A stretch of DNA of 64,000 nucleotides from a virus (IMGVR_UViG_3300044213_000170:64001-128000); one strand, 5' to 3'. Shown: positions 5,609 to 21,221, numbered from the stretch's first letter. A program made the numbers and translations. Notes: generated by a model from the letters alone, not told the origin.

Positions 5609-6277
5609 TTACCAAAGTAATTCAAAATTACCCGCTAATACTTTTTTGGTACTAGCAGCCTTATCTGTTCTGTGATCCTTAACAACATCGTCTTGGAATC
5701 TGTAGGTGCGGATTTTGTCGCCCCGCATACCAGATCCGACTTGTTGCTTTCTATCACTTGCTATTGTATTATTATACTGCCTTTTTACCAAATTGTCAAC
5801 CGTTTCTAAGATAGTACTTTTTGCTTGGTCTAGGCTGTTTTGACGGCTACGGCATTGTGCTGTGGCTGTTATGCCCGTAGGGATATGAGTTATCCGGCAA
5901 CTGTTTTGGTGTTTGTTGCGATGTTGCCCGCCGGCACCCGTGCCCGAATACCATTCTATTTTTAGATCAGCATCCATCACCTTTATCTTTGGTGCGCTTT
6001 GGTCTATGACTGCCACGGTCACGGTGCTAGTATGGACTCGACCCTTTCGTTCCGTTGGAGGTATACGCTGTATGCGATGTCCCCCACACTCGTTTTCTAA
6101 GCCGGATAAATCAGTACCCTCGACAAGTATATGAACTTCGCCAAGATATTCATTTATCAGGCGGGTAGTTCAGCCCTTGCTGTGTGCGAATTTAATGTAG
6201 GCCTGTGCCAAGTCTTTAACAAATAACTTACTGTCCTCACCGCCTTCTGCGGCTCTGATCTCCAATGTGCGTTTCAT
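5609..6277 (-). CDS. Class I peptide chain release factor-like protein (RF1-type PxT motif, GGQ, lacks domain 1) with an in-frame TGA at codon 36
   Basis: ATG at 6277 (TAATG overlap with the upstream stop) is in frame with the 5609-6022 ORF: MKRTLEIRAAEGGEDSKLF...SKG*TTRLI...ECGGHRIQRIPPTERKGRVHTSTVTVAV...SGTGAGGQHRNK...KIRTYRF; TGA at 6170-6172. Confidence 0.85.
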
Positions 6278-6504
6278 TATACTCTCTCCTTTTTAACGCG
6301 GCCTATTCGGCTTGCTTTGTTCCAATCGTATTTAACACCATCTGGGCAAAAACCGTCTTTAACAGAGTCTACTCCAAACTTACCAACAATTTCAAAGTTG
6401 TCACCGACAATTCTTACGAATTCGTTCATGTGCTTGGCAACATTCATTGCCTCATTCAAAGTTAAAACCTTTAAGGTTTCTTCCTTACCTATTATCTTAA
6501 ACAT
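6277..6504 (-). CDS. Hypothetical protein (likely start MFKIIG at 6504)
   Basis: TAATG-coupled to both neighbours. Confidence 0.7.
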   Translation of the reverse strand: MFKIIGKEETLKVLTLNEAMNVAKHMNEFVRIVGDNFEIVGKFGVDSVKDGFCPDGVKYDWNKASRIGRVKKERV

Positions 6505-8112: not shown

Positions 8113-8146
8113 CCAAAAAAAAATCCCGGAAATCCCGGGATATTTA
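8113..8146 (-). terminator. Probable intrinsic terminator after tRNA-Gly
   Basis: ATCCCGG inverted repeat followed by a U-run on the minus strand. Confidence 0.6.
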
Positions 8147-8149
8147 AAG

Positions 8150-8225
8150 TGGAGCGGGATATCAGGTTCGAACTGACGACCTAGTGCTTGGCAAGCACTC
8201 GCTCTACCAACTGAGCTAATCCCGC
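8150..8225 (-). tRNA. tRNA-Gly(GCC)
   Basis: Cloverleaf, loop TTGCCAA, encoded CCA. Confidence 0.95.
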
Positions 8226-8549: not shown

Positions 8550-9388
8550 GCTCTGCATCCCTCGGCGGTAATTATACCTCTCAAGCCTTTTGCCGTCACT
8601 TGAAATATACAGGCATGACCCATATACTCCATCAGGTTACTTGACTATCACAGAGGCCGCCACCCGCTTCCCGACAGGGACCGTTCACGCATTGCCAGCG
8701 GCCTTTTGGTTCGAAGACTACCACCCGTGGGGCACGACCACCACTTCTCCTTCATCCGGGTCAGACTAGCTCAGCGTTACCCGAGCGGGTTCTTTCTCAG
8801 ACGCCACCGTTCTTTAGCGGCGTCTGATATTTTCTTCTTCTGTTCTTCAGACATTATTTTGGATCTTGTCTCCCAAGACTTTTTTGTTGTCTCACTTAAC
8901 TTTTGTCTAACTTCTTCAGTGTGGCAATTTGGGTAGCTACGTCTTTTATTAGCGTTGCTTATTTTTTGTCTAGTTTCAACACTAGTAATTTTTCCTCTTT
9001 TCGAACTACCTTTTTTCCAATTAGATTCTGGTGAAGTTCCTGAAGAACCTTCACCACCATTAGTCATATTCTTTAATATGCCTGTTCCTAAATCTTGTCT
9101 TCCATATTTTGAAATTAATTCAGTTTCTAAGTTAAATGCTTCCTGTTCAGACAAATTTTCATGTAACAGAACTATTCTCTTATAGTTTTTTGGAGTATGA
9201 ACTCCCCTACCATTAACACGATGCTGTTCCCAGGCACGCCGTTCTTTACCCTTACCAATATAGTAAGGTGAACCATCTTCTCTTAGATAAGCATAAACAT
9301 AGTATTCATTCATACTATTATTTATGTCAACCGGGTCATACCACCATCCTGCGGGTCACAGTATCTGCTGATTAGGCAGAACGTCTTT
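8550..9388 (-). ncRNA. Putative structured ncRNA split by a GIY-YIG ORF
   Basis: GC-rich non-coding segments 8550-8776 and 9325-9388 flank the ORF; possible long-range pairing GGUAUGACCC/GGGUCAUGCC across it. Confidence 0.5.
8777..9313 (-). CDS. GIY-YIG homing endonuclease with NUMOD3-like repeats
   Basis: YYVYAY...PYYIGKG...R...E...N; ETRQKIS/EEVRQKLS repeats. Confidence 0.9.
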   Translation of the reverse strand: MNEYYVYAYLREDGSPYYIGKGKERRAWEQHRVNGRGVHTPKNYKRIVLLHENLSEQEAFNLETELISKYGRQDLGTGILKNMTNGGEGSSGTSPESNWKKGSSKRGKITSVETRQKISNANKRRSYPNCHTEEVRQKLSETTKKSWETRSKIMSEEQKKKISDAAKERWRLRKNPLG

Positions 9389-13462: not shown

Positions 13463-13549
13463 TGGTGAGACAGGTGGGGATCGAACCCACACGGGCATAA
13501 AGCCGCCAGATTAAAAGTCTGGTACCGCAACCATTTCGGTGTCTGTCCC
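13463..13549 (-). tRNA. tRNA-Lys(TTT) with atypical long variable arm
   Basis: Anticodon arm CCAGA-CTTTTAA-TCTGG, about 15-nt variable region, CCA. Confidence 0.8.
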
Positions 13550-17559: not shown

Positions 17560-17636
17560 TGGCGACCCCGGATGGATTTGAACCACCGACATTTGGTTTT
17601 GGAGACCAACGTTCTGCCAGACTGAACTACGGAGCC
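17560..17636 (-). tRNA. tRNA-Trp(CCA)
   Basis: Loop CTCCAAA, G73, D-stem GTTC/GAAC, CCA. Confidence 0.95.
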
Positions 17637-21129: not shown

Positions 21130-21221
21130 TGGTACCAGCGGAGGGGATCGAACCCTCTCAAGAACGCTAATCTGGCGCTAAAAGTCTTATAAGGACTCTC
21201 TGACTTCCAAGTCTCGCTGGT
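21130..21221 (-). tRNA. Atypical tRNA with TAT (Ile) anticodon and long variable arm
   Basis: ACCAGCG/CGCTGGT acceptor, tiny D-loop, loop CTTATAA, CCA. Confidence 0.75.

Follow-up and report, generated by a model that had tools for sequence, protein, structure and literature searches.

Stop-gated release-factor genes are represented by prfB, the textbook case of translational feedback, and by one case in the giant viruses of amoebae, the release-factor gene of Mimivirus; these two are the closest published cases to the gene described here. Programmed low-level readthrough of UGA by tRNA-Trp is also a feature of coliphage Qbeta A1. For prfB, a survey of 8160 bacterial motifs contained none that uses TAG (10.1101/2024.09.24.614795). 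In Mimivirus and Megavirus, the gene for an eRF1-type factor combines readthrough of a conserved UGA with a frameshift; insertion of Trp has been proposed, near-cognate reading of UGA by tRNA-Trp being known, and the viral tRNA-Trp carries a Hirsh-like A in its D arm (PMC3521657). Likewise, phages with altered genetic codes encode class-I release factors: RF1 genes were found in TGA-recoded 'Jade' phages and RF2 genes in TAG-recoded Lak and Agate phages, the genes themselves being written in the standard code and aiding a late code switch (10.1101/2021.08.26.457843). A survey of huge phages reported RF1 and RF2 genes as well and mentioned neither in-frame stops nor readthrough in them (PMC7162821). 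Our full-text literature searches yielded no description of gated RF1-type release-factor genes in phages.

The window, i.e. the whole stretch of 64,000 nucleotides analysed here, derives from a large freshwater phage and carries a gene for a shortened RF1-type translation-termination factor. The gene belongs to a large, phage-specific and seemingly undescribed family in which the same gating principle is at work, and in the clade of the window the gate consists of UGA readthrough with a covarying downstream hairpin and not of a frameshift. The ORF runs from 6277 to 5609 on the minus strand and comprises 222 codons with a single internal stop, a TGA at codon 36 (6172-6170) in the context GGC-TGA-A, the terminal stop of the frame being TAA (Table 1).

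Compared with prfB, the gene is likewise a class-I release-factor gene with an early in-frame UGA, whose full-length product depends on non-termination at this codon, and sister phage lineages even use GGAGG, a 3-nt spacer and CUU UGA at the junction corresponding to the UGA of the window. In contrast to prfB, however, the window gene stays in frame over GGC UGA ACU and has no slippery CUU, it possesses a 3' hairpin instead of a 5' SD, and the site is located in domain 2 rather than in domain 1. Moreover, the product is of the RF1 type and should not read UGA, so that the loop would not be closed on the factor itself, and TAG occurs in 12 of 163 phage genes, compared with none of the bacterial prfB motifs. 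The Mimivirus and Megavirus gene resembles the window gene in encoding a viral termination factor that requires readthrough of a conserved UGA, and the tRNA-Trp of the window also has U11-A24. Whereas that factor is of the eRF1 type, belongs to a virus of eukaryotes and needs readthrough and a frameshift in one gene, the phage gene encodes a truncated bacterial RF1 type and has a single UGA followed by the covarying hairpin. With the Jade, Lak and Agate phages, our phage shares a class-I release factor encoded by a large phage genome, but this genome is not recoded and it is the factor gene itself that holds the only in-frame UGA. In Qbeta, readthrough extends a complete coat protein into a second product, whereas here it makes the only functional product, and this product is a termination factor.

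The original prediction described an RF1-like factor devoid of domain 1, with PPT and GGQ motifs and a coupled in-frame ATG ahead of one TGA, an anatomy that translation, Pfam and NCBIfam confirmed. On the conceptual readthrough protein (P0001), Pfam detected PCRF at profile positions 103-194 only, plus RF-1, and the NCBIfam models ranked prfA (197 bits) above prfB (122) and prfH (44). The prfA models (TIGR00019 / NF001859) scored 195-197 bits, which is below their equivalog cut-offs of 400-423, and covered model positions 107-339 only. Based on this match pattern, the product is an RF1-type class-I release factor reduced to domains 2-4. The N-terminal three-helix bundle forming domain 1 is absent, the alignment to RF1 structures starting at residue ~88-112, and an encoding of domain 1 as a separate gene was rejected, as the contig contains no second PCRF match. 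The AlphaFold (AF2) model, with a pLDDT of 84.5, comprises a strand at residues 2-11 and a helix at residues 14-33 and shows residues 1-35 as an integral strand and helix of domain 2. Foldseek aligned it to ribosome-bound T. thermophilus and E. coli RF1 with a TMq of 0.88.

The stretch encoded upstream of the UGA includes the GGED helix tip, the reader of the first stop-codon base in RF1. Further RF1 determinants are retained as well, namely the Q before PxT, the Thr of PxT and the HTST motif, while an RF2-type SPF is lacking. Throughout the family HRIQRIPPTERKGRVHTST shows no variation, and it aligns with HRVQRVPVTE..IHTST in the RF1 of T. maritima. From these motifs we predict specificity for UAA and UAG. 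In the alignment with T. maritima RF1, codon 36 falls on a Trp ('KGW'), matching the Trp-like position assigned to it originally. Of the functional proposals made at that time, a sensing of low RF2 or high tRNA-Trp is kept as a prediction, whereas ribosome rescue found no support, because the codon-reading elements are all kept, unlike in ArfB and PrfH, and no RtcB-type family occurred among the neighbouring ORFs scanned, whose matches were a phosphoesterase, a DSP-like phosphatase and unknowns. PrfH is likewise devoid of domain 1, and GGQ is common to PrfH, ArfB and the phage factor. The score against the PrfH model TIGR03072 was 43.9 bits compared with a cut-off of 166.65, however, and the phage factor retains codon-reading motifs that are absent from stop-codon-independent rescue factors.

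Table 1 Features of the gated release-factor gene and the phage tRNA-Trp, in window coordinates
Feature	Position	Strand	Basis and remarks
Shine-Dalgarno-like AAGGAGAGAG	6282..6291	minus	Read from sequence; AGGAG at 6290-6286, 5' of the start
Start ATG	6277-6275	minus	Overlaps the TAA (6279-6277) of an upstream 102-aa ORF, as TAATG
Codons 1-35, first strand and helix alpha5 of RF domain 2	6173..6277	minus	Translation, AF2 model
Gate codon UGA, codon 36	6170..6172	minus	Conserved-Trp position of cellular RF1
Spacer of 7 nt (ACUACCC) from UGA to hairpin	6163..6169	minus	Alignment A2; base after UGA is A
Conserved RNA hairpin, 16-bp interrupted stem, variable top	6101..6162	minus	Folding, covariation, synonymous entropy
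Codons 37-222, remaining domain 2, domain 3 (GGQ), domain 4	5612..6169	minus	Pfam, NCBIfam, Foldseek
PPT, codons 73-75, RF1 'PxT' position within HRIQRIPPTE	6053..6061	minus	Invariant in alignments A1 and A3
GGQ catalytic motif, codons 116-118	5924..5932	minus	Translation; invariant in A1 and A3
Terminal stop TAA	5609..5611	minus	TAA ends 141/163 unique family genes
Phage tRNA-Trp(CCA)	17560..17636	minus	ARAGORN; normal 5-bp anticodon stem, U11-A24 in the D stem

The conservation of the gate TGA is far beyond chance. Among IMG/VR loci with 67-96% protein identity, the aligned codon was TGA in 80/80, each gene having one internal stop, and in a codon alignment of 81 CDS (75 unique) the W36 position was TGA in 81/81, whereas W109 and W222 were TGG in all of them. 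More distant members, with 58-67% identity, retained TGA in 86/86 loci, as did 7/7 contigs from Logan, NCBI and ENA assemblies, and all 88 unique proteins of the window's clade require one UGA readthrough. We looked for TGG at this codon in the close homologs, and every relative had TGA. Purifying selection acts on both sides of the stop with dN/dS values (Nei-Gojobori) of ~0.1 (codons 1-35, 0.10; codons 37-222, 0.135), and upstream of the TGA 35/35 third positions are variable. A nucleotide-level search of the phage collection gave no match.

Pseudogenes are usually recognised by a single internal stop, and a dead or dying gene, or else an assembly or sequencing error, would leave such a trace. 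The same codon recurs, however, in more than 100 independent contigs (IMG/VR, Logan, NCBI, ENA), with exactly one stop per gene, purifying selection on both flanks and a conserved cis element. The comparative data, in particular the invariant TGA and the selection on either side, exclude error and pseudogenisation, and we assign this explanation a negligible probability.

Uninterrupted 222-aa database proteins with W at the gate position turned out to be code-4 gene calls, 7/7 fetched contigs requiring TGA=W, and database forms of 163-187 aa are shortened calls that start at varying codons 3' of the stop. As gene callers either cut these genes short or apply code 4, the family is currently misannotated in the databases. 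The short calls would also be what is expected of a split protein, in which no readthrough takes place and the 35-residue peptide associates with a C-terminal fragment that has its own start. Their starts, though, differ among relatives (codons 41, 44, 48, 61), the first in-frame start after the UGA in the window is a GTG at codon 86, and the alignment contains no conserved start codon or SD adjoining the UGA, which leaves a split protein hardly credible.

The synonymous-codon entropy, with a mean of 0.72 over the gene, drops to 0.28 at codons 36-45 and to 0.37 at codons 51-60, and these two low-entropy stretches pair with each other, codons 39-45 with codons 54-59. The resulting stem begins 7 nt after the UGA, alignment columns 32-50 pairing with columns 75-93 (window 6162-6101). 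Covariation was computed on 67 distinct sequences: 93.4% of the cells were paired, compared with 28-47% for slid partners, and 33 cells showed double changes, compared with 9 ± 2.4 in shuffles, none of 500 shuffles reaching 33. Among the compensatory changes in the stem are two positions at which A-U is replaced by G-C and one at which it is replaced by U-A. The hairpin of the window has an MFE of −22.7 kcal/mol with a z of −2.6, and distant members, differing in primary sequence, fold into the same long-range stem architecture. In these distant clade members a slide by +1 pairs equally well, indicating a register drift of 1 nt that renders the fixed-column test less clean there; a fixed register across the most distant members was thus only partly supported. 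Rfam returned no match at the hairpin, including no SECIS match.

The base following the UGA (+4) shows a bias as well. At 138 gate UGAs family-wide it was A in 79, C in 32, G in 27 and U in none, whereas genuine TGA stops of this genome have U at +4 in 13/49. U at +4 has been described as the strong-termination context in bacteria (PMC5289835). Judging from these alignments, both the non-U +4 base and the hairpin are selected parts of the signal, and the hairpin may exert a stimulatory role. The locus therefore displays what characterises programmed readthrough, a conserved stop with an in-frame coding signature beyond it and conserved 3' context or RNA structure, and also what characterises a prfB-type gate, a conserved early in-frame stop in a release-factor gene under selection on both sides. 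The claim that the full-length protein needs readthrough is upheld by the selection on both sides, the invariant TGA, the lack of a conserved internal start, and the 3' context together with the hairpin. At the level of sequence evolution, the gate is well supported as a real, conserved recoding device.

The genome uses the standard code and is not recoded, as stated originally. Under code 11, 88.6% of the 145.4-kb contig is covered by ORFs of at least 100 aa, and treating TGA as a sense codon brings no greater gain than doing so with TAG. A crude gene caller yielded 186 stops in the contig, comprising 116 TAA, 58 TGA and 12 TAG, UAA ending 62% of this phage's genes, and the release-factor gene is the sole convincing TGA-interrupted gene. 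Since the CheckV completeness of the contig is ~42%, we additionally read G001 (354 kb) and G002 (364 kb), two complete relatives in which this gated gene also occurs. Code 11 fits either genome with a coverage of 0.88, and both contain a tRNA-Trp(CCA). Across the window genome, G001 and G002, 30-41% of the genes end in TGA, and ARAGORN detected neither a tRNA(UCA) nor a tRNA-Sec in the contig (G000) or in the two relatives. The marks of code 4 are absent: in-frame TGAs are not spread over many genes, TGA and TGG are never interchanged within the gene, and there is no tRNA(UCA) among these three genomes.

These data bear on a decoding of UGA as sense by dedicated machinery, be it a suppressor tRNA, a local code 4, selenocysteine insertion with a SECIS-like hairpin or A-to-I editing to UGG. 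On the surface, the UGA with its downstream hairpin looks like a bacterial SECIS, and with the contig partly complete the tRNA could lie elsewhere. Yet the complete relatives of 354-364 kb lack such tRNAs too, TGA ends about a third of the genes while other genes are not TGA-interrupted, cellular homologs have Trp and not Cys at this position, and the hairpin has no Rfam counterpart; the constancy of TGA within the gene runs contrary to code 4. The GGC-UGA-A context differs from the UACG loop used by TadA. Dedicated decoding is thus very improbable.

In all three genomes the release-factor gene lies beside or inside a large tRNA array on the same strand. The phage tRNA-Trp(CCA) is likely the near-cognate decoder of the gate UGA. 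A UGA-reading tRNA design employs a 4-bp anticodon stem (PMC13092985), a possibility rejected for the phage tRNA-Trp, whose stem has the normal 5 bp. Its Hirsh-like A24 is present in the window and in both G001 copies; as G002 has G24, A24 is not a family-wide requirement and remains a lead. Two further tRNA calls are atypical. The tRNA-Ile(UAU) of 92 nt (21130-21221, minus strand) combines an anticodon stem of 6 bp and a D loop of 4 nt with a long variable arm; the tRNA-Lys(UUU) of 87 nt (13463-13549, minus strand) also has a long variable arm, together with a D stem of 3 bp. Neither has the anticodon UCA, and we rejected both as hidden suppressors.

Several other features were observed in the tRNA regions. 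Both complete relatives encode an amber-anticodon (CUA) tRNA, at G001:C1:174391-174465 (L391) and G002:C1:363408-363482 (L301), the latter drawn with a 4-bp anticodon stem by ARAGORN, and a permuted tmRNA gene is found nearby in both; TAG ends just 5-7% of the genes in these genomes. G002 has an extra tRNA call with an 8-nt anticodon loop ('tttc'). In the window, a homing-endonuclease-like ORF (phrog_314) is situated among the tRNA genes (8777-9313, minus strand), and a strong intrinsic-terminator-like hairpin with a T8 tail (8123-8141, minus strand) directly follows the last tRNA of the array, a tRNA-Gly (8150-8225), on its 3' side. Because of this terminator-like hairpin, the release-factor operon is probably a transcription unit separate from the tRNA array. 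Beyond the window, the plus strand of the genome at C1:129436-135463 contains same-frame ORFs split only by TGA and running opposite to most genes, a pattern that probably does not reflect recoding but arises as an antisense artefact from a repetitive (collagen-like) gene.

Judged from these comparative sequence data, we consider it rather likely that the gene encodes a domain-1-less RF1-type factor whose synthesis is gated by programmed UGA-to-Trp readthrough, tying its output to RF2 activity. Most ribosomes would stop at the codon-36 UGA through host RF2 and release a 35-residue fragment without the GGQ domain. A minority would insert Trp by means of a near-cognate tRNA-Trp(CCA), either host- or phage-encoded, which would restore the ancestral Trp and give the 222-residue factor, and the hairpin would stimulate this event from the mRNA entry channel. 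Low-level UGA-to-Trp readthrough would be the only route to the full-length protein, because the frame is kept, the ancestral residue is Trp, a cognate suppressor tRNA is lacking from the genomes scanned and near-cognate reading is established. Because RF2 and tRNA-Trp compete at the UGA, the output of the factor should rise when RF2-dependent termination becomes limiting, and an extra factor reading UAA and UAG would relieve RF2 of UAA stops. As an RF1-type factor should not read UGA, such a gate would perform cross-sensing and not the self-sensing of prfB.

We also analysed the wider family. A search for prophage or cellular copies among 185,579 bacterial and archaeal species genomes had ordinary RF1 proteins with at most 45% identity as its best matches, indicating that the family is phage-specific. 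The next-nearest phage homologs (~39% identity) are domain-1-less PPT proteins encoded in phage genomes of 595-735 kb, each interrupted by one or two in-frame TGAs, located in the same region but at different codons. In three of the four 40-kb neighbourhoods examined for these huge-phage relatives, TGA-joined ORFs were not in excess; the fourth, L174, was ambiguous. In a third lineage, the first 34 residues are encoded in frame 0 and end in GGAGG GGU CUU UGA, the rest following in the +1 frame. This prfB-type cassette sits at the junction matching window codons 35-36, and some members have CUU UAG instead. The earlier idea that the stop serves as a sensor receives strong comparative support from these sister lineages, in which a prfB-like +1 frameshift occupies the same spot.

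A survey of 76 loci retrieved with one frameshift-lineage protein comprised +1 frameshifts at CUU UGA (31 loci), CUU UAG (13) and CUU UAA (1), genes with two in-frame UGAs (17) or one (11), and three uninterrupted genes, namely L232/L233 (IMGVR_UViG_3300005974_000004, 3300025354_000003) and L243. Counted on 163 unique conceptual proteins, one UGA readthrough is required in 102 and two in 18, while a frameshift occurs at UGA in 29, at UAG in 12 and at UAA in one; the remaining protein, an RF2-like outgroup, has no gate. Since nearly every examined gene has an internal stop, the gate is probably a built-in sensor of stop-codon-reading capacity and not the sign of a broken gene. In the maximum-likelihood tree the window falls inside a clade of 88 rows, all with one UGA readthrough, and among the UGA frameshifters a switch to a UAG gate occurred on at least five occasions. 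A second gate position was also observed: in L270, L272, L275, L276 and L282 a CUU UAG cassette follows ..GFAHLCL, where relatives have an in-frame UGA ('SI-UGA-L.G'). Different recoding mechanisms thus make use of the same two codon positions.

These gate types bring in the main competitor of the RF2-sensing model, a factor that reads its own gate codon. As in prfB, the phage factor itself would read UGA (and UAG), its abundance ending its own synthesis and its scarcity permitting readthrough. Such self-autoregulation is in line with the true prfB-type cassettes of the sister lineages and with the repeated swaps between UGA and UAG, during which the HRWQRVPPTE recognition loop stayed unchanged, a behaviour most easily explained if one factor reads both codons; UAA, which both host factors read, is nearly never the gate. 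Indeed, the interchange of UGA and UAG in the sister lineages fits a reader of both codons, or a gate indifferent to the codon, better than a strict RF2 sensor. On the other hand, the known RF1 determinants are all kept, the SPF motif is missing and the profile scores favour prfA over prfB, so that we regard self-autoregulation as unlikely. We know of no natural bacterial-type factor that reads all three stops. The far-reaching form of this idea, in which the factor reads UAA, UAG and UGA, all gates of the family are self-autoregulatory and the hairpin would be the first RNA structure found to tune bacterial UGA-to-Trp readthrough, appears equally doubtful.

The gate could also be a constitutive dose limiter, the UGA and its context fixing a low yield of a protein harmful in excess without sensing anything. 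Readthrough necessarily cuts the output, the serial gates of some lineages cut it further, and Jeudy et al. proposed a buffering of overexpression for the Mimivirus gene (PMC3521657). A weak RBS or promoter would suffice for this purpose, but AGGAG is a strong site here and the start is coupled. Furthermore, the maintenance of the stop across 58-96% identity, the re-invention of frameshift cassettes and the avoidance of UAA point to a signal that release factors read, and the yield of any stop-codon gate depends on release-factor activity anyway. A pure dose limiter is therefore improbable, to about the same degree as self-autoregulation.

Should the RF2-sensing model be correct, large phages would keep track of how much termination capacity an infected cell has and supplement it, and a working release factor could dispense with domain 1 in vivo. 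The family would also supply natural, compact and tunable UGA-readthrough and amber-frameshift cassettes for synthetic biology.

Besides the gate, the release-factor gene contains a perfect sigma-70 consensus (TTGACA, 17 nt, TATAAT) at window 5771-5799 on the minus strand, spanning codons 160-169. Of 75 unique relatives, 43 have the complete motif, which coincides with a second dip in synonymous diversity, its codons being strongly fixed: D161 is GAC in 61/61, N169 is AAT in 66/66 and Y168 is TAT in 59/65. The motif thus appears to be selected at the nucleotide level and is probably a promoter for the genes downstream.
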